From assembly GCA_963794325.1 (NCBI GenBank), contig CAWCDG010000004.1:96001-160000 (forward strand): 64,000 bases of DNA, written 5' to 3'. Made by a program: the position numbers and the translations under genes. This document shows positions 10,663-22,646 of the stretch, piece by piece. Numbering within the stretch: the first letter of the stretch is position 1; every line of letters starts with the position of its first letter. The notes under the pieces were generated by a model that saw only the letters and a program-made list of their open reading frames with translations, was not told where the DNA came from and did not search any database. The stretch is from an uncultured delta proteobacterium (GTDB taxonomy: Bacteria > Desulfobacterota > Binatia > Binatales > Binataceae).

Positions 10663-11728
10663 GTGGCGGATTCCTCTGAAATTAAAGACGCGCTGGAGAG
10701 GCTGACTGCGAATGCCAGCCGCGAGTTGCTCGTCAAGCAGCCGCATTGGGGCGACGCTATCCTGTGCGACGGCCTCCTCTATGCGGCGCTTGCCCTGAAA
10801 ACGGACGCGCCGGTCGAGGCGGCGCAGCGATGGTTCGAGCCGAAGCTCGCGGCGGGTCCGCGCACCAATGGATGGTTCTGGTTCTGGGCGGCCGAAGCGC
10901 TGCCGGCGCTCGACCTGTATGAGAAGACCGGTGACGCGCGTTATCTCGAATATGCGCGCACGATCATAGATTTCATGGAACACACGGCGGCGCGCACCCT
11001 CGATGGCGCTCTCGTGCCGCACCCCCCAGCGATGGAAATCTGGATCGACGTGTCCTACTTCACGGCACCCGCAATGACGCTGCTCGGACGAATCTTGCAC
11101 GACGTCGCGATGCAGGATCGTGCGCTCGATCAGATGATCCTTCATGCGGATCATCTCGATCGATCCCCTCACCGGTCTTTTCTGGCACGTCGCCTACGTC
11201 GAAAAGAAGTCGCATTCGCGGTGCTTATGGGCTCGGGGCAATAGTTGGTTTTCGATCGCGGCGCCGCAAGTGATCGCGGAAATAGAAGCAGCCGGAGCGA
11301 CTCCACGGCTTGCCGCAAAGGTTGAGAAGATACAGACGGCGCTGGCGCGACAGCTCAACAAAATCGCCACGCTGCAGGACGAGTCGGGCTTGTGGCATAC
11401 CGTGATCGATCGCGACGATTCGTATCTCGAAGCGTCGTCGGCGGCTGGATTCGCGCTTGCGCTCGGACGCGCTCTTCGCGCGAGCCTGCCGGGCCTCGAC
11501 GACGCTCGCGCGCACAATGCGTACTTGCGCGCTCTCCGCGCCATTTGTTCGAAGATAGATGCGCACGGCGCGTTCAACGACGTGTCGCAACAGACACCGC
11601 CGGGCGACTTTGCGTTTTACAATTCGATCGAGGTCGGGACCGCGCCGTTTGCAACCGGCGTGTGCATGATGGCGCTCAGTGAGGCACTTGGAAACGAGAC
11701 ATGGCTGATAAAAATAAAAAAGTCGTAG
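10663..11728 (+). CDS. Glycoside hydrolase family 88/105 (unsaturated glycuronyl hydrolase-like); frameshift near 11157
   Basis: WIDVSY, joined HL-IDPLTGLFWH, WARGNSW, LQDESGLWHTV, YLEASSAA; two ORFs join on removing one base. Confidence 0.8.
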
Positions 11729-14721: not shown

Positions 14722-15963
14722 TCACATCGCACGTAATCGATTGAGTATCGTCTCGTCAAACACCTCAGCCGGCAGGACTTCGGGTCCGATGAATGCGGCC
14801 GGCGAGGCGTCGGGGAAATTACCGCGGAGACGTTCGTCGCGAACTTTCGCGCGGCGCTCGCGGGCGCGGTCGCTGAATTCGACGCTCAGTATCGAAAATG
14901 TCGAAGCGGTGAGCCTGAGCCGGCGCATCCGCTCGCGCCGTTCCTCCGCGTAAGGTCGAAACAGGTCGGGCGTCCAGTTGCGATCCTCGAGCATCAGGTC
15001 GCGGACGATGCGCACGTCACGGTAAGCGATCGACAATCCTTGCCCGATGATCGGATCGTTGTGGCCGGCGGCGTCGCCTATCAGCACGACGCCCGCGACG
15101 TATGGCACATCAGTCCAGGTGTCCTCGTTGCCGTACGAGTTGCAGGGCCCCGACGGAGTACCGTTCGCGAGGCACTCGCTGCGGGGGACACTCGCGAGGC
15201 GGAACGCGTCGAGGAAGCGCGCCTGGTTGTCGCCGCCGGCGAAGCGGCGCTTCTCGTCGAGCGCGTAACATATATAGAGACGCACGCGCTCGGCCGATTG
15301 CGGGAACGCGAGAAAGTTGATGCGCGCCTCGGTGCCGAAGATCTGCAAATCCGCTGGCCATCCCGTGGTGCCATCGACCAGCATCCCGGCCATCAGGTGA
15401 TGCGTCGGATCGCGATGCTGCTCGATGCCGGCCTGCGAGCGCACGACGGAGTTGCGGCCGTCGGCGCCGATGACGATACGCGGATTGAACTTGCGCTCGA
15501 CGCCGTTGTGCCTGAATCGCACGCCGGGCGCGGCTCCCGCGGTCAGCTGTACGTCGGTGACGCCGCGAAGCAGTTCGGCGCCTGCTTTGAGCGCCTCGGC
15601 GTTCAGCAGGTCGCACATGTCGGGATGTCGCATGCATAGCGGCGGCTTGAAGCCGGCGTTCTCGAAGGCTTTGAGGTCGAGCAGCTGAGACTCCGCGGTG
15701 GCGGCCTCGATGTCGTCGCCGTAAGCGATGTGCCGCCCGAGATGATGTCCTCCGGCCGCAAGCAACGTTTCGTACAGGCCGAGGCGCTGGGTTTCCGCGA
15801 CGCCCCACGGCGCGAGCCATTCGCCGCGCACATGATCGATATGCACCAGCGTCTTCTCGAGGATCGTCACAGTGATGCCGGCTTGGGCGAGCGCTGTCGC
15901 GAGCGCGCTCCCGCCGATTCCAGCGCCAACGATCACGACCTCGGGGTTGGCGTGTTTTTCCAT
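14722..15963 (-). CDS. FAD-dependent monooxygenase/oxidoreductase
   Basis: GAGIGG, RGEWL, IGADGRNS, LIGDAAG..DP..GQG. Confidence 0.9.
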   Translation of the reverse strand: MEKHANPEVVIVGAGIGGSALATALAQAGITVTILEKTLVHIDHVRGEWLAPWGVAETQRLGLYETLLAAGGHHLGRHIAYGDDIEAATAESQLLDLKAFENAGFKPPLCMRHPDMCDLLNAEALKAGAELLRGVTDVQLTAGAAPGVRFRHNGVERKFNPRIVIGADGRNSVVRSQAGIEQHRDPTHHLMAGMLVDGTTGWPADLQIFGTEARINFLAFPQSAERVRLYICYALDEKRRFAGGDNQARFLDAFRLASVPRSECLANGTPSGPCNSYGNEDTWTDVPYVAGVVLIGDAAGHNDPIIGQGLSIAYRDVRIVRDLMLEDRNWTPDLFRPYAEERRERMRRLRLTASTFSILSVEFSDRARERRAKVRDERLRGNFPDASPAAFIGPEVLPAEVFDETILNRLRAM

Positions 15964-15968
15964 GCGGC

Positions 15969-17481
15969 TCAGTTCACCACTATATCGAAGTGCGCGGTTT
16001 CAATTTTGCCCGCGCGTTTGAACTGTAGAAAAATTCGATAGTGGCCGGACTTGGGAAACCCGTAAGGCACGGACAGCTCCGGCGAGATGCTCGCGCTCGC
16101 GTTCATGTTCATGCCGGACATGTTCATGCCCGGCATCGAGTTGGAGGTGGCGTCGGAGTTGGTGCTGGCCATCATCAGCGACGCCATTGGGACAGAGCCT
16201 GAAGGATGGATGTGCGCGAACACTTGCAGGTCGGAGCTTATGATTTCGGCGTGCGCGGCCATTCCCATGTACGGCTCGACGTCGGACGCCGGCTTGCCGT
16301 TTTGATCCTGTACTTCGAAGCGCAGGATCATCGGCGCGTTCGCGCGAATCGCGGCGCCGTCGCGATGCCATACGACGCGCGTGCCGTCGTCGAGCACATC
16401 GATCGCGGAATCCGTTGACGACGTGAGCGCGGGCGCATGGCCACCGCAGTCATCGCCCTTGAGCGGTGTGCCGCTTATCTGCGGCAAGTCGATCGAGCCG
16501 ACCAGCGTCCAGGGAAATCCGGTTTGGTCCACGATGTCGGCGAACACGGTGTAGTGGCCGGGCTCAATCCGCGGGAGCGCGTCAACGAACGCTCCATCGG
16601 ACTGGCGATCTGGATGCAAATGCCAGATGCGGTCGAGCGCGGGCGTGCGCAGGAGGAACAGATGCATCAGATGGCCGTGGTCGGGCAGGATGCCGTCCAT
16701 GACGTTGAACCGCAGCCAAAGCTTGTCGTCCGGCGATGGACGAATCGCGAGGCGGTTACCATCGACAACGGTCAGCGCAAGTTTCGGTGGCTTGAATATT
16801 TTCGTAATCGCCGCATAGTTCCGCGCGTCGGCATTCCACCATGCGAATGCGAGATAGAAGATCGCCGCGACGATGACTCCGGTTATCGCCATCGCGCGCC
16901 ATCCGCGACGCTTGAGCTCGGGCGTGACCGGAGCACCCGGAGCGAGGCGCGATTCGCGAGCCGCGCCGCCGACAATTGAAACCGCGCCGATGGCCAGGGC
17001 GATCGCGAGCGTCAGCAGCAATGCGCCCAGCGCCGGCGGCATCGAGAGCATCCGGCGCGCGGCAGATGGAACCGGCACCGACATTTGCGCGTTACCATGC
17101 GGGACCCGCGACGTTTATCAGCACCCGCATCGAGCCGTACTCCATCAGCCAGAGACTCGAAGTGAAGAGATGCGGATCGATTGGAGAACGCTGAGCGGCG
17201 TCCGGGACGGGAGCATACTGCGAGCCCGCGCCTGCGAGGCGAGTCACCGCAGTGGTAACCTTCTGCACGTCGTCGGAGTTGGCACGAATCTGCACATCGG
17301 CGACACCGGGGATTACCGCGGGAACGTTGACCGTCACGAACAAGTGATACGGGCCGGCGTCGCCTTCGTAATAAACGTTGGGACTGCCGACATGCGCGTC
17401 GGCGGGGATCGCGAAGAGCAGGACCGCGACCGCGAGCATCGCGACACGGCTTGCCGATAGCGTCGGGCGGGAGCGGCGCAC
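15969..17481 (-). CDS. Membrane-anchored His/Met-rich putative copper-binding protein (~503 aa), mature N-terminal His; frameshift near 17105
   Basis: Signal peptide ...IPADA-HVGSP; extra C in GGTCCCG joins the two ORFs (AGPHGNAQMSVP); two TM helices; HGHLMH, WHLHP, MGMAAH, AHIHP and a Met-rich loop. Confidence 0.7.
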
Positions 17482-17482
17482 G

Positions 17483-18682
17483 TCAGCGGCGGACGGTGCG
17501 CATCCAGTTGCCCAGCGCCATTCCGATCGAGCAGAAGATTATCGACATCGCGAGCGCGATCATCATTCCTTCACTGAATGCGGCCCAAGTCTTATCCAAA
17601 TCGGCGAAATGATATGGGTTGTAGAGCAAATTGGCGGCGTCGAAAAACCCGAAATAGTTGGCGCCGAAAATTGGATTGCGCGCATAAGGCGAGATGAGGA
17701 ACTCCGCGAATGGCCACTGCGCCGCGACGAACGCCGCGATGAAAACAAATCCGGCTGCAAGCGCGGATTTCCAGCCGCCCCACTTCTCGCCCATCCGCGC
17801 GCGCAGCAGATCGAGCGCGAATGCGGGCACGATCACCAGTACCGGGAACCATAGCGGCACCATGTGCGTGACGTGCTGATACACCGGGCCGAGTTTGGGC
17901 GCGGCAGGGAATAGCGGGAAGATCCACAAGGCAGCGAGAAAGAGTCCGGTGTAAATTGCGGCCATCGTGGTCGCCGGCCAGCGATTTCTGGAGACGACTC
18001 GAGATCGCGATCAGCGCACAGCGGAAATGAAGTCGCCGACCGCGCGATAGAACTCCGAGCTGTGCATGAATTCCATCGGCGTCGATTCAAGGATGAACAA
18101 CGCCGAGCCTGCGACGACGATGCCGCCGATGGTGAGCAGCAGCCAGTCGAGGCGGCGCTGATAGCTGCCGGTCGCGCGGTTGAGATGCGCGCATACCAGC
18201 AGCATCGCGCCAAGTTCGATCATCAACTCGCCCATTCCGAGCATCGAATGCGGCAGGCTGACGATTTTGACATCGAGTCCGTAGGCGTTATGCCACCAGT
18301 TGTCGAAGGGCGCCGAAGTCAGCATCGCAAATCCGCCCCAGGCTGCCATGAAACATCCGAGCGGCCCGCGAAAGCCCCAGACCGAGATGCTTGAGTCCCT
18401 GGCTTCCTGCGAGTTGCCGAAGGTGGTCGATAGAATCGCGTAGCCGCTGGCAATCCCGGCCAGCACGCCCGCGAGATAGATCATCATGTGCGCGGGGGTC
18501 CAGAAGGTGTCGCGGCCGATCGAGATATGCCACGAGATGTCCCAGTAACCGCCGAACACGTCGGCGGCAGTCGCAGCGGCGAGGCACCACACGTACCACG
18601 GAATCGACGCGGTGCGCTCGGCCGCGACGCTACGAACGTCAGCGCGCGGGCGAAGGTCGAAGGTTGCGGCGGCATTTCCCAT
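17483..18682 (-). CDS. Polytopic membrane protein (~398 aa) with two PmoC/AmoC-like D-x3-H-x12/13-H motifs; local indels at about 18000-18040
   Basis: GAGGAG RBS before ATG 18682; WDISWHISIGRDTFWTPAH and FDNWWHNAYGLDVKIVSLPH; many TM helices; the two ORF halves share a frame. Confidence 0.7.
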
Positions 18683-18947
18683 GGCTGGTCTCCTCGACAA
18701 TTGTAGCGTTATGCCGCGCGTCCGCCCACAGGTGGAGACAATCGAAATCCTGCGCATGACTCCCGCTCACGTGCCATCGAGTGTTCCGTTCTGAAGCCTA
18801 AGCGCGCTGATGATGTTTGCTCGAATGACCTTTGATCGGCTGGCGCGGGCTATCGGCAGGATTCAGCGAATTCCAGTTAACCAACGATGACTGGCATCCC
18901 GCTTGCAGTTCATCGCTGTGGGGGCCTTTCCTACAAAAGGGGCGGGA

Positions 18948-19862
18948 ATGGCCGCGATGGTCGTCGCGCTGATACTGGTTGCGGGCGTTTTGCACGCGTC
19001 TGAGTACGGAGTTGGCACCTATCGTCCGGGCCAGGTCGATCTGTTCGCGGGCACGCTTCCGGCGCCGGGCGGACTGTTGGTGAAGAACTACTTCCTGTTT
19101 CAGGACGCGAGCCTTACCGCGCAACCCAACCACGTACCGGTGCGATTCCATACTCATACGATTACTTACACGGACGCGACGTTTATGACTTACACGACGC
19201 CATGGCGGATTTTCGGCGCGAACTGGGGAGTGGCGGCATTGGCGCAGACGCGAATCGCCGATCAGACGTTGCGGGTCACGGTGATTGGCGGACCTACCTC
19301 GAAGCAACATTCGACGGTTGGCGGATTTGGCGATCTGATCTTTTCGCCGTTGATGTTGAACTGGAACTTTTCGAAATTTCACCTGGTCAGCGCGCTGATG
19401 CTCTATGCTCCGACCGGCAGCTATGATCGCCGCCGCATTATCGACGTTGGGCTGAATCGATGGTCGATAGAGCCCGACCTCGGCGTGACCTGGCTGGATC
19501 CGGAAACGGGACGTCACGCATCGCTGTTCGTCGGCTATACCTTGAACGCTGAAAATCCTTCGACCCACTATGTGAGCGGCCAGGAATTCCACGCGGACTT
19601 CGTCTTCGCGCAGCACCTTCCGCACGGATTAGTTGCGGGGATAGCCGGCTACGCGGTGCAACAGACCACCGCGGACTCAGGCAGCGGGGCGACGCTGGGC
19701 GCATTCAAGGGGCGGGTGATTGCGTTGGGCCCGCTGGCCGGCATTACCGTTCCAATCCTGAAAGTACCGATCAATTTTTCCTTCAAGTACGAATTCGAAT
19801 TCGCCGTGCAAAACCGATCGACGGGAAATGAACTCTGGCTGACCGCTGCGTTGCGGTTCTGA
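18948..19862 (+). CDS. SphA / phenol-MetA-degradation family outer-membrane beta-barrel
   Basis: Signal peptide, Y.PG...F.G.LP.PG, GFGDL.FSP, APTGSYD, NR W, GY..QQTT.DSG, C-terminal F; start uncertain. Confidence 0.85.
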   Translation: MAAMVVALILVAGVLHASEYGVGTYRPGQVDLFAGTLPAPGGLLVKNYFLFQDASLTAQPNHVPVRFHTHTITYTDATFMTYTTPWRIFGANWGVAALAQTRIADQTLRVTVIGGPTSKQHSTVGGFGDLIFSPLMLNWNFSKFHLVSALMLYAPTGSYDRRRIIDVGLNRWSIEPDLGVTWLDPETGRHASLFVGYTLNAENPSTHYVSGQEFHADFVFAQHLPHGLVAGIAGYAVQQTTADSGSGATLGAFKGRVIALGPLAGITVPILKVPINFSFKYEFEFAVQNRSTGNELWLTAALRF

Positions 19863-19865
19863 GTC

Positions 19866-22646
19866 ATGCGACAGAACGGCAAGGTCGTGCACGATGGTCA
19901 GGCGGGGCCCCGGCACGCGATGGAGCGCGAGGACGCGCTGCTGGCGGCGCTGGTCAGAACCTCGGACGACGCGATCATCAGCCTCTCGACGGAGTTCCGC
20001 ATAACGAGCTGGAATCGGGGAGCGCAAAAGCTACTCGGCTACACGGCGGAAGAGGCGATCGGCAAACGGCCGTTCGATCTTTATATTCGGCCGGGCGACC
20101 GCGCGATCGATCAGGCGAGGCTGGTGCGCGACCTCGCGATGATAAAAGAAAACCCCGAGGCCATGCGCCTGCTCGAATTGCCGCTGCAAAGGAAAGACGG
20201 CACCATCCTCGACGCGGCGATTGGTGGCAGCGGAATCTACGACGCCAGCGGAGAGCTGATCGGTTTGTCGGCGATTATGCGCGACGTTACCGAGCGCAGG
20301 CGCGTCGAGCGTGAAAGCGCGGCGCTCGCGGCAATCGTCGAGTCCTCCGACGACGCGATCACGACGATCGCACCAGACCTGTCCATCGCGTACTGGAACC
20401 GCGGCGCCGAGAAAATGTTCGGCTTCACCGCGGCGGAATCGATCGGACAGCCGTTCACGCGGAACATTGCGCCGGAGAACCATGCACAGGCGCGGGAAGT
20501 CATTGACCACCTGATGGCGCGACCGGATGAGGTGGTTCGCTTCGAAGGTCCCAACCATAGAAAAGACGGCACGTCGGTTGAGGCATCCACCGTTTGTTTT
20601 GCGATCCGCGATGCAGACGGAAAAGTGCTCGCCGTGTCGAGCATCCAGCGCGACATCAGCGAACGCATCCGCTCCGAGCGCCAGGCGGCACGACTTGCCG
20701 CGATCGTCAACGCCTCGCAGGACGCCATCATGATCGTGTCGTCTGAGTCCAAGATACTTTTTTGGAATCCGGCGGCAGAAAGTGTGTACGGTCACACGGC
20801 TGAGGAGGCGGTTGGAAAAGGCCTCGAGCTGTTCGTTCCACCCGACGAACTTGCGGAAACTATTGCCAGAACCCGGCGCGTGGTCGAGACCGGCCAGCCG
20901 GTATCCTGGGAACAGCATGGCATCGCAAACGGCACTACGTTCGTTTCCGCGGTCAATATTTTTCCGATGCGCGATACTGCCGGCAATGCGACCTGCGTAG
21001 CCGGCATAGGACGCGATATTACCGCGCTGAAGAATACCGAACGCGAGCTGGTCGCGGCGCGCGAAGCGGCGTTCGCGGCGTCGCAAGCCAAATCGGAATT
21101 CCTGTCCAGCATGTCGCACGAGATCCGCACGCCGATGACCGCGATCCTCGGGATGGCCGAGTTGCTGGCCGAGAGCGAGCTGAATACCGAGCAGCGCCGC
21201 TACATCGAAATTCTTGGCAATAACGGACGCGCGCTACTCGACCTGATCAATAGCATCCTGGATCTGGCCAAGGTCGAGAGCGGCCGGCTGACGCTCGAGC
21301 GCGTCGGCTTCGACCTGCGCGAGGTGGTGGAAAAGTCAGCGCAGACGCTCGCACTGCGCGCGCATGCGAAGGGTCTGGAGCTGAATGTCAGCATCGCGCC
21401 CGAGGTCCCGACCGCGTTGCTCGGCGATCCGCTGAGATTAAGGCAGGTGCTGATCAACCTGATCGGGAACGCGATCAAATTTACCGACCACGGCGAGGTA
21501 CTGATTTCTGTCGAACGCGATTACGCGCCGGACGATCCGATCCGATTGAAATTCAGCGTTCGCGACACCGGGATCGGAATTGCAAAGGACAAGGTCCCTG
21601 CTCTATTTGCCGCCTTCTCGCAGGCCGACTCCTCGACCGCGCGAAAGTACGGCGGCAGCGGCCTTGGACTTGCGATCGTCAAGCGCCTGGTCAACCTGAT
21701 GCAAGGCGAGGTTTCGGTGGAGAGCGAGCCGGGGATGGGCAGCGTTTTCAGCTTCACTTCGCTTTTCGAGATGAACCCGGACGCGCCCGTCGCGTCGCCC
21801 TGGCCGGACCTTGCCGAAGTGCAGGTTCTAATCGTCGACGACCAACCGGCCGGGCGCGCCGTGCTACGCGAGATGCTCGCCGGGCATGGGGCAAGCGTCG
21901 TCGAAGCCACGTCGTATCAAGAAAGCATGAAGGCAATCGCGCGGGCCGTCGCGGCGGGACGGCCGCCACGGATCGTGCTGCTCGACGATCGAATCGCTTC
22001 ACCGGGCACCGGTGGGATTGCGCGACTGATCGCGGCGGCATCGCACTGCGGGGCGTCGATCATAGCAACGATCCATTGCGATAACCTGGCCGCCGATATT
22101 TCGCGGCTCAAATCGTTGAAGGTCGAAACCTACCTGGTCAAGCCGATTGATATGAGCGAACTTGCCAAAGTGGTTCGCGGCGCGATCGCGGGCGAAACCG
22201 GTGAAGCGCCACAGAACCACCGCGCCGCGATCAATCCGCAGCCGCCGCCAGTCATCGACCAACCGCTCAAAATTCTGTTTGCCGACGATTCAGCCGACAA
22301 CCGGACGCTGATCCGCGCTTTTCTGAAGAAGACGCCCTACCATCTCGACGAAGTCGAAAACGGCCGGCAAGCGATCGACGCCTTCATCGCGGCCGGTGAC
22401 TACGACCTGGTGCTGATGGACATCCAGATGCCGGAAGTTGATGGGTACGCCGCGACGCGTGCGATTCGCGATTGGGAGCGCGAGCACAATCGCAAGCGTA
22501 CTCCGATAATCGCGCTGACCGCGTCGGTGTTCAACGAAGCGGTCCGCCTCACCCGCGCCGCGGGATGCGACGCGCACGTGGGCAAGCCGATCAGCAAGGT
22601 AACGCTGCTGCGCGCGATATACGATGCGGCGGACGCTCAGGCCTGA
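19866..22646 (+). CDS. Cytoplasmic hybrid histidine kinase (3 PAS, HisKA, HATPase, 2 REC)
   Basis: Three S.DAI/WN.GAE PAS repeats, FLSSMSHEIRTP, NAIKFT, DTGIG, GGSGLGL, LMDIQMP. Confidence 0.95.
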   Translation: MRQNGKVVHDGQAGPRHAMEREDALLAALVRTSDDAIISLSTEFRITSWNRGAQKLLGYTAEEAIGKRPFDLYIRPGDRAIDQARLVRDLAMIKENPEAMRLLELPLQRKDGTILDAAIGGSGIYDASGELIGLSAIMRDVTERRRVERESAALAAIVESSDDAITTIAPDLSIAYWNRGAEKMFGFTAAESIGQPFTRNIAPENHAQAREVIDHLMARPDEVVRFEGPNHRKDGTSVEASTVCFAIRDADGKVLAVSSIQRDISERIRSERQAARLAAIVNASQDAIMIVSSESKILFWNPAAESVYGHTAEEAVGKGLELFVPPDELAETIARTRRVVETGQPVSWEQHGIANGTTFVSAVNIFPMRDTAGNATCVAGIGRDITALKNTERELVAAREAAFAASQAKSEFLSSMSHEIRTPMTAILGMAELLAESELNTEQRRYIEILGNNGRALLDLINSILDLAKVESGRLTLERVGFDLREVVEKSAQTLALRAHAKGLELNVSIAPEVPTALLGDPLRLRQVLINLIGNAIKFTDHGEVLISVERDYAPDDPIRLKFSVRDTGIGIAKDKVPALFAAFSQADSSTARKYGGSGLGLAIVKRLVNLMQGEVSVESEPGMGSVFSFTSLFEMNPDAPVASPWPDLAEVQVLIVDDQPAGRAVLREMLAGHGASVVEATSYQESMKAIARAVAAGRPPRIVLLDDRIASPGTGGIARLIAAASHCGASIIATIHCDNLAADISRLKSLKVETYLVKPIDMSELAKVVRGAIAGETGEAPQNHRAAINPQPPPVIDQPLKILFADDSADNRTLIRAFLKKTPYHLDEVENGRQAIDAFIAAGDYDLVLMDIQMPEVDGYAATRAIRDWEREHNRKRTPIIALTASVFNEAVRLTRAAGCDAHVGKPISKVTLLRAIYDAADAQA

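Follow-up and report, generated by a model that had tools for sequence, protein, structure and literature searches.

Copper membrane monooxygenases (CuMMOs) oxidise methane, ammonia and short alkanes, and both their active site, the CuC/CuD pocket of PmoC, and the role of the PmoB subunit are still debated. For PmoC of M. capsulatus, PMC12576850 names Asp156, His160 and His173 (together with Arg165) as the ligands of the CuC site and Asn227, His231 and His245 as those of the CuD site, and in the account given in PMC11725843 the pocket that holds the two sites is regarded as the active site of particulate methane monooxygenase (pMMO). Here we describe a gene for a bitopic protein of about 500 residues that directly follows a gene for a remote homologue of PmoC. 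It occupies positions 15969 to 17481 on the minus strand of a 64,000-nucleotide stretch of DNA from an uncultured bacterium of the Binataceae (GenBank assembly GCA_963794325.1, contig CAWCDG010000004.1, positions 96,001 to 160,000 of the forward strand), called the window below. A first-pass annotation, made from the sequence alone, had taken its product for a coupled partner with PmoB-like architecture. Our analysis makes it fairly probable that this product is a mostly periplasmic subunit, a non-homologous analogue of PmoB, in a two-gene membrane copper complex related to the CuMMOs.

Residue numbers of the protein are those of L009. Conservation counts refer to an alignment of 65 family members with 32-86% identity, and the domains are taken from an AlphaFold2 (AF2) model with a mean predicted local distance difference test (pLDDT) value of 92.6 and a predicted template modelling (pTM) score of 0.88. 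The gene and the parts of its product, including the transmembrane (TM) helices, are arranged as follows.

15969-17481, minus strand: gene for the bitopic partner protein of about 500 residues; one extra base interrupts the frame in the window
17395-17481, minus strand: predicted signal peptide of 29 residues ending A-D-A; Ala at -1 in 56 of 65 members and at -3 in 41 of 65
17392-17394, minus strand: His codon, predicted to specify the start of the mature chain; His is kept in 62 of 65 members and in all six close relatives (6/6)
17105-17394, minus strand: N-terminal periplasmic beta-sandwich of seven strands (AF2, residues 24-135; pLDDT of this block 95-98)
17100-17104, strand not applicable: frameshift site, a single extra base in or beside a run of G (17101-17103 on the plus strand)
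16959-17039, minus strand: TM helix 1 (AF2, helix 143-170)
16836-16901, minus strand: TM helix 2, running on as a long helix (AF2, helix 181-222)
16461-16793, minus strand: second periplasmic beta-sandwich, D2 (AF2, 225-330), with D-H-x4-H and H-x-H-P motifs
15972-16421, minus strand: third periplasmic beta-sandwich, D3 (AF2, 350-501), with Y-M-G-M-x2-H and H-x-H-P motifs

In the window the gene is read as two open reading frames (ORFs) in different frames of the minus strand, 17092-17481 (129 residues) and 15969-17084 (371 residues). Directly behind an AxA-type site, at which the leader is predicted to be cleaved, His24 would become the first residue of the mature chain; the sequence after the leader in the first ORF is HVGSPNVYYEGD. 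The loop between the two TM helices is short and rich in Arg and Lys and, judged from this loop and from the leader, the N-terminal domain would lie outside, the loop inside, and D2 and D3 outside. Conserved VIPG (17305-17316) and LWLME (17140-17154) motifs mark the N-terminal domain, where G37, Y39, P52, G53, W105 and M107 are nearly invariant; both motifs fall within the predicted interface with the membrane partner. D2 contains PDHGHLMHLF (16656-16685) and IWHLHP (16611-16628) and keeps D261 (63/65), H262 (63/65), H267, H281, H283 and Y304 (64/65 each). In D3, EPYMGMAAHAE (16245-16277) and FAHIHP (16203-16220) are matched by M401 (65/65), H404 (64/65), H417 (63/65), H419 (64/65) and Y479 (63/65). 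P284 and D309 in D2 and Y398, D411 and P420 in D3 are also nearly invariant. These features lie far beyond chance because they are conserved over 65 members whose identity ranges from 32 to 86%.

Every sequence feature listed in the first-pass annotation is present on the minus strand: the 1-nucleotide gap to the upstream gene, the leader with its His, the two helices, both motif pairs and the Met-rich stretch. The conservation of an N-terminal His behind the cleavage site was borne out by the alignment; the single open frame assumed for the gene was not, a frameshift having been overlooked. Of the duplicated motifs, the His and Met residues counted above are conserved. The second His of 'DHGH' is kept in 29 of 65 members (31 have Lys) and the His of 'GHY' is variable (consensus GxY), the Tyr being the residue kept in both domains. 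D2 and D3 had further been called internal repeats. When aligned with hhalign, the two domains gave a match with both motifs in register (E = 0.011, probability 3.8%), which is weak support from sequence for a repeat. The Met-rich stretch (16101-16175) is a disordered loop of D3 with pLDDT below 50. The loop is enriched in Met (frequency 8.6% compared to 3.2% overall, with at least three Met in 44 of 65 members) and variable, with 0-9 Met and a median of 4.

The upstream gene and the two motifs in it that bear on PmoC are located as follows.

17483-18682, minus strand: partner gene for a polytopic membrane protein of about 400 residues, a remote PmoC homologue; broken in the window
18488-18544, minus strand: motif WDISWHISIGRDTFWTPAH, which aligns to the CuC site of PmoC (Asp/His/His plus Arg); invariant in 37 of 37 members
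18248-18307, minus strand: motif FDNWWHNAYGLDVKIVSLPH, which aligns to the CuD site of PmoC (Asn/His/His), with Asp replacing Asn

The partner is modelled with 10-11 helices (pLDDT 80.6) and has no family assignment, although at least 7998 of 8000 scored candidates matched it in a sequence search. Ten residues are the same in all 37 partner members (37/37): D47, H51, R56, D57, H64, D126, H130, D136, H144 and H271. Comparison of the partner profile with 52 PmoC/AmoC sequences by hhalign gave a probability of 75% and an E value of 2.5e-5, with residues 27-144 aligned to PmoC 119-237. A profile of 107 sequences scored 5.1e-5 against PmoC, whereas reversing the template gave 0.23 and the best of 20 column shuffles gave 0.022. 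In this alignment D47/H51/R56/H64 are paired with Asp156/His160/Arg165/His173 of CuC, with identical spacings of 4, 5 and 13 residues, and D126/H130/H144 with Asn227/His231/His245 of CuD, with identical spacings of 4 and 14. At the place of DISWHISIGRDTFWTPAH in the partner, the PmoC of G031 (a complete genome from the same class) has DASWHQIVVRDTAFTPSH. The profile comparison upholds the PmoC likeness seen at first pass: the partner is a remote PmoC homologue in which all six ligand positions of CuC and CuD are kept, and weak matches to the AmoC family models recur among its members. G031 contains two canonical pmoC-pmoA-pmoB operons (L015, L117, L118), the PmoB proteins of which have a mature chain starting HGE and carry HVHP, and it is without the pair studied here; a distant D3-like lipoprotein is encoded elsewhere in G031, in an uninformative neighbourhood.

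The C-terminal part of the partner gave a hint of PmoA likeness. With Foldseek, eight of the first nine matches of the partner model were PmoA/AmoA chains from different organisms, at E values of 0.04-0.23 and template modelling scores of 0.44-0.58 by target length; the identities of the chains were checked, that of 3rfr_B being inferred. Partner residues 277-391 were collinear with PmoA 120-238 (E = 0.0064, compared to 0.14 for the reversed template and at least 0.016 in 20 column shuffles). Aligned by hhalign to a single PmoA sequence, the partner profile gave E = 0.2, that is, nothing was found, and the same was true of PmoB and of unrelated alignments (0.22-0.63). A search of the ESM Atlas with the C-terminal half returned a single unnamed cluster at 0.80.

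The two genes are translationally coupled and belong together. The GTG start codon at 17481 lies 1 nucleotide past the TGA (17483-17485) of the membrane gene, and among 80 loci drawn from a species-representative genome collection the membrane gene was directly upstream on the same strand in 77. Two of the remaining three had less than 300 nucleotides of upstream sequence and one (L037) truly lacked the membrane gene, so that 77 of the 78 informative loci show the adjacency expected at first pass. The same 11 of 41 related genomes contain both genes, and the other 30 contain neither; one of the 11, G013, holds only fragments of the two genes on different contigs. These fragments (G013:C14:400678-400902 and G013:C2:424692-424832, one with an internal TAA) resemble loss of the pair. 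In another genome of the genus two tandem copies of the whole pair lie about 4.7 kb apart (G004:C15:174899-182397), and in both copies the match to the protein studied here is split near residue 315-331. A conserved third gene was not found at these loci; the flanks differ among lineages. The 42 same-strand neighbours include 11 short-chain dehydrogenases and a few oxygenase-type proteins, and none of the 42 belongs to a copper-homeostasis family.

Binding between the two products, for which the first-pass annotation had asked for a predicted interface, is supported by modelling. The complex model of both proteins had an interface score of 0.80, compared to 0.00 for the best of three controls; 58 of 80 solved complexes attained this level, as did 2 of 110 mismatched pairs, counts that are only a rough guide here since our own alignments were used. 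Three model runs shared at least 86% of contacts, with a partner pLDDT of at least 83. The pairs with the lowest expected error join the first TM helix of the protein (138-176) to partner helix 107-135, which carries D126 and H130. In the models the N-terminal sandwich contacts the partner through VIPG (50-53), residues 72-86, W105 and M107, and on the partner side the predicted contacts involve D57, residues 128-135 (H130-L135) and an invariant loop (259-269). The contacts predicted for each chain involve its most conserved residues.

The family is large and, as far as we could find, undescribed. A search with an intact relative (82% identical to the 371-residue ORF) scored 8000 candidates, of which at least 3236 matched at E <= 0.001. 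Precomputed Pfam domains are absent from all of these; the few that bear a name are listed as hypothetical or predicted secreted protein, and where a source is named it is Candidatus Binatus or Binataceae. When all cluster representatives were searched, 2771 clusters matched at E <= 0.001, of which 1227 reached 1e-10 and 463 reached 1e-30, and the full-length layout of about 500 residues is retained down to about 34% identity. At least 594 loci (599 pattern matches) were confirmed in the species-representative genome collection, mostly in Acidobacteriota and Binataceae from soil. A description of the gene pair or family was not found in the literature, of which supplementary files, e.g. those of PMC12537917, could list further families; the main account in that paper (2025), on proteins with an N-terminal His, describes other families.

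Neither Pfam (E <= 0.1) nor NCBIfam had a family for the two ORFs of the window. When the 65 members were scanned singly against Pfam, only weak, scattered matches to known families were obtained, among them the E-set domains YtkA (PF13115; 6/65, best E = 4.6e-4) and FixH (PF05751; 1/65), and CopC was not among the 25 families listed for full-length members. Scanned by domain, D3 matched YtkA in 2 of 40 cases (best E = 0.017) and D2 matched DUF2271 in 7 of 40 (best E = 0.0069), while 40 N-terminal domains gave nothing relevant (four families at E <= 1, none of them CopC). Sequence profile searches of the PDB found no match for D2 or D3, and for the N-terminal domain one weak match, annotated 'Copper resistance protein' (E = 1.2). 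In the ESM Atlas, D2-D3 matched unnamed clusters of 270-290 residues at 0.90-0.94 and, all below 0.9, YtkA (19% of one cluster), Cupredoxin_1 and HMBD clusters, which we treat as leads only.

We therefore regard the protein as a family of its own with a likeness to PmoB that is architectural, and the preferred reading is that it acts with its partner as the PmoB analogue of a CuMMO-related complex. The metal is most likely copper, given the PmoC-type triads, the N-terminal His, the His/Met chemistry of D3 and the weak YtkA likeness. The first four helices of the partner share remote homology with the metal-binding core of PmoC and retain both triads, D/H/H of CuC type and D/H/H of CuD type. 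According to the models the subunit would dock by its first TM helix onto the partner helix that bears the second triad, and the N-terminal sandwich would cap the periplasmic face where both triads sit. Copper could then be held at the N-terminal His and at two clusters in the protein, one of three to four His and one of His and Met, and the protein may support the membrane sites in the way PmoB does for PmoC/PmoA, through stabilisation, metal loading or electron relay. Most likely, the complex would oxidise some substrate. We favour such an enzyme-like role over copper handling because the only detectable relatives of the partner are enzyme subunits, its conserved residues are the active-site ligands of pMMO, and the neighbouring genes encode oxidoreductases, not copper-homeostasis proteins. 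A bolder version, which we put forward tentatively and hold to be doubtful as it stands, is that the two genes form a branch of the CuMMO superfamily that has so far gone unrecognised, in which a PmoC-type core (the first four helices) is joined to a PmoA-like helical domain and the 500-residue protein replaces PmoB without being homologous to it, i.e. an oxygen-activating copper enzyme of abundant soil Acidobacteriota and Binatia. Hydroxylation and subsequent oxidation of the alcohol would be in line with the dehydrogenases and oxygenases often encoded nearby.

Several results weigh against the PmoB-analogue reading. No PmoB-type family was among the Pfam matches of the 65 members, and in hhalign comparisons with the two PmoB sequences of G031 only the signal peptide and the His aligned (E = 0.05), in keeping with the first-pass statement that homology to PmoB could not be seen. 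Foldseek with the whole model of the protein returned only generic immunoglobulin-like multi-domain chains and no cupredoxin assignment. The alignment of the N-terminal domain holds no second conserved His, which makes a histidine brace of the PmoB or lytic polysaccharide monooxygenase type within one domain impossible. In the complex models His24, D2 and D3 are outside the confident interface, and since pMMO complexes are already among the solved structures, a memory effect may have contributed to the complex score. The partner, too, fails the cut-offs of the AmoC families: in Pfam 5 of 37 members matched AmoC (best E = 0.0026) and in NCBIfam 4 of 37 and 7 of 37 (AmoC_BACT) matched (best E = 0.0016-0.0055), all far below the cut-offs. 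A PDB sequence profile search with the partner gave two chance-level matches and did not find PmoC, and in Foldseek no match reached E <= 0.001 and PmoC chains were absent among the 50 matches listed. The pair is also patchy within the genus, present in 10 and absent from 14 of 24 other genomes, which suggests an accessory function. Finally, copper trafficking would account for the weak YtkA/FixH matches and the Met-rich loop no less well than catalysis.

The alternative that survives best, and that we nonetheless consider unlikely, builds on this last point. In it the pair would be a system for the acquisition or chaperoning of a metal (copper or another) and not an enzyme, the membrane protein being a permease or an insertase for other cuproenzymes; the domain with the N-terminal His and the His/Met sandwiches would capture metal in the periplasm and pass it to the membrane protein, in the manner of CopC/CopD, YcnI/YcnJ or the 'anglerase' domains of permeases. 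Met-enriched loops, such as that of D3, are typical of Cu(I) handling. The occurrence of YtkA in six members and of FixH in one, and the PDB match of the N-terminal domain to a copper resistance protein, poor as it is, point the same way; set against them, neither CopC, CopD, DUF1775 nor any other copper-homeostasis family was detected in the pair or in the 42 same-strand neighbours. The layout, an N-terminal His behind a signal peptide, a membrane anchor and E-set-like sandwiches, resembles that of YcnI-type proteins, and YcnI is reported in published abstracts to bind copper and to exchange Cu(II) with the importer YcnJ. The YcnI family itself, DUF1775 (PF07987), gave no match at E <= 1 in 65 full-length members or 40 N-terminal domains and occurs in 0 of 151 genomes of the phylum, including that of the window (E <= 1e-5), while the control, Bacillus subtilis, was detected. 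Permease-attached domains with an N-terminal His, as described in PMC12537917, lend the idea a precedent. The membrane protein argues otherwise, as its detectable relatives, PmoC by sequence profile and PmoA by fold, are all enzyme subunits and the residues that it conserves correspond to active-site ligands of pMMO.

That the pair is decaying in the source genome, so that the frameshift and the garbled stretch with its stop codon are real mutations, is much less probable. The span 15969-17481 measures 1513 nucleotides, or 504 codons plus one base, and DNA alignment places one surplus base at about 17104 in comparison with each of four relatives (4/4). Damage is seen in the upstream gene (17483-18682) too: it has single extra bases at about 18038, 18022 and 17999, a garbled stretch of 13 codons (17999-18037) and, at 18011-18013, a TGA in frame. 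Counted over both genes, the four single-base insertions, which fall within 2.7 kb and are seen against all four relatives, could be read as decay, as could the gene remnants in G013 and the dispensability of the pair in a genus where 14 of the other genomes searched lack it. However, six same-genus genomes have a single continuous ORF of about 500 residues, and the junction in relatives reads ...LINVAGA(H/R)G(A/P)AQMSVPVPSAAR... without a break. Public soil-metagenome runs (X1 and X4) contain the window sequence, and we aligned their contigs to it. A contig of 487 nucleotides from X1, with one other mismatch to the window, has one base fewer at 17100 (depth 12.9/12.9), and a contig from X4 has one base fewer at 17104. 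Both X1 contigs over the garbled stretch of the partner gene are without all three extra bases; since they diverge from the window by about 6%, this is weaker evidence for the strain of the window. No RNA run was among the public runs listed with this sequence.

The surroundings are in line with errors of assembly. An unrelated gene at 10663-11728 on the plus strand is split into two frames at about 11157-11159, where a same-genus relative has a single ORF of 309-315 residues, and this third frameshift within 8 kb fits indel errors. Comparable gene splits are found in loci L027, L031, L032, L054, L077 and L092, from assemblies with similarly formatted isolate names. The source genome has a marker completeness of only 85% in spite of being in 10 contigs, which indel errors would explain, and, the indels aside, the protein shares about 80% identity with its intact relatives. 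Because same-genus relatives have one ORF and the contigs from public runs are without the extra base, the frameshifts in both genes are most likely assembly errors. We rejected programmed frameshifting, as the frame of the relatives is continuous and the public-run contigs are without the extra base.

It is similarly improbable that the pair binds another metal (zinc, iron or nickel) or has a role without metal, for example in signalling or in maintenance of the envelope, and that it resembles PmoC through an ancient scaffold without shared chemistry. Zinc or iron can also be bound by Asp/His/His triads and clusters of three His, and in some crystal structures of pMMO the CuC site was occupied by zinc, whereas copper is favoured by the Met enrichment and by the His/Met motifs of D3. 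PMC12537917 describes proteins with an N-terminal His that bind nickel, among other metals. A gene for a putative hybrid histidine kinase nearby (19866-22646) could suggest signalling, except that such a kinase adjoins the pair only in its closest relatives and that neither protein contains a signalling domain.

We also recorded the genes that flank the pair. On the minus strand a gene for a flavin adenine dinucleotide (FAD)-dependent monooxygenase (14722-15963; FAD_binding_3, UbiH/PHBH-like) starts 5 nucleotides past the stop codon of the gene studied here, with which it is probably co-transcribed; such a gene is also found downstream in the same-genus genomes G003, with a SnoaL-like gene between, and G016. 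Divergently upstream, on the plus strand, lies a gene for an outer-membrane protein (18903-19862) that matches Phenol_MetA_deg ('MetA-pathway of phenol degradation') with E = 3.2e-47. It is followed on the same strand by the gene at 19866-22646, the 926-residue product of which resembles a hybrid sensor histidine kinase as judged from its sequence. This arrangement of outer-membrane protein and kinase recurs in the relative G003 and not in more distant loci. Only in a subset of loci (L055-L096, of Bryobacterales/Solibacter type) is a short-chain dehydrogenase of 273-275 residues encoded directly behind the pair, 7-33 nucleotides downstream on the same strand, in about a dozen cases; a functional link to the pair, e.g. 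oxidation of an alcohol product, is possible.

The pair keeps the ligands of PmoC in a different subunit arrangement, next to an unrelated protein with the topology of PmoB. It would offer an independent natural experiment on the purpose of the periplasmic subunit and on which features of the membrane site are essential. If the pair is an enzyme, it would represent a new oxidative activity in bacteria that rank among the most abundant in soil; as a copper-handling system, the pair would instead represent a new route of copper supply with a membrane component of PmoC type.

Compared with PmoB/AmoB, the protein shares the predicted cleavage of a signal peptide that exposes a His as first residue (His33, a CuB ligand, in PmoB), the order of a periplasmic beta-rich domain, two TM helices and further periplasmic beta-rich domain(s), a gene directly behind a gene of PmoC type with predicted binding to its product, and an H-x-H-P motif, which reads HVHP in the two PmoB proteins of G031 and HLHP and HIHP here. 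It differs in having no detectable sequence homology and three periplasmic domains in place of two. In PmoB, moreover, the HxH (His137/His139) is in the same domain as His33, whereas here HxHP occurs in D2 and D3, behind the TM helices. The PmoB-like architecture proposed at first pass therefore holds for the N-terminal His and the two TM helices, and not for an HxH in the N-terminal domain or for the number of periplasmic domains. No separate PmoA gene stands beside the pair, unlike in CuMMO operons. The partner resembles PmoC/AmoC in the profile-profile match over about 115 residues; it is larger (about 400 residues and 10-11 helices, compared to about 260 residues for PmoC), has Asp at the Asn position of CuD, and its weak fold matches are to PmoA and not to PmoC.

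With YcnI/YcnJ and CopC/CopD the pair has in common an N-terminal His domain, a membrane-anchored extracytoplasmic protein and a polytopic membrane protein that works with it. YcnJ carries a YtkA-like domain, and members of the family described here have weak YtkA matches. In contrast to those systems, the members scanned have no DUF1775, CopC or CopD match, and the membrane partner is of another family. The 'anglerase' domains Ang-1 and Ang-2, as presented in PMC12537917, are likewise metal-capturing domains with an N-terminal His that are tied to a membrane protein, but in that account they are fused to permeases of the HupE/UreJ type, and the domains are members of other families. The protein described here is instead a separate bitopic subunit with two additional His-motif domains.

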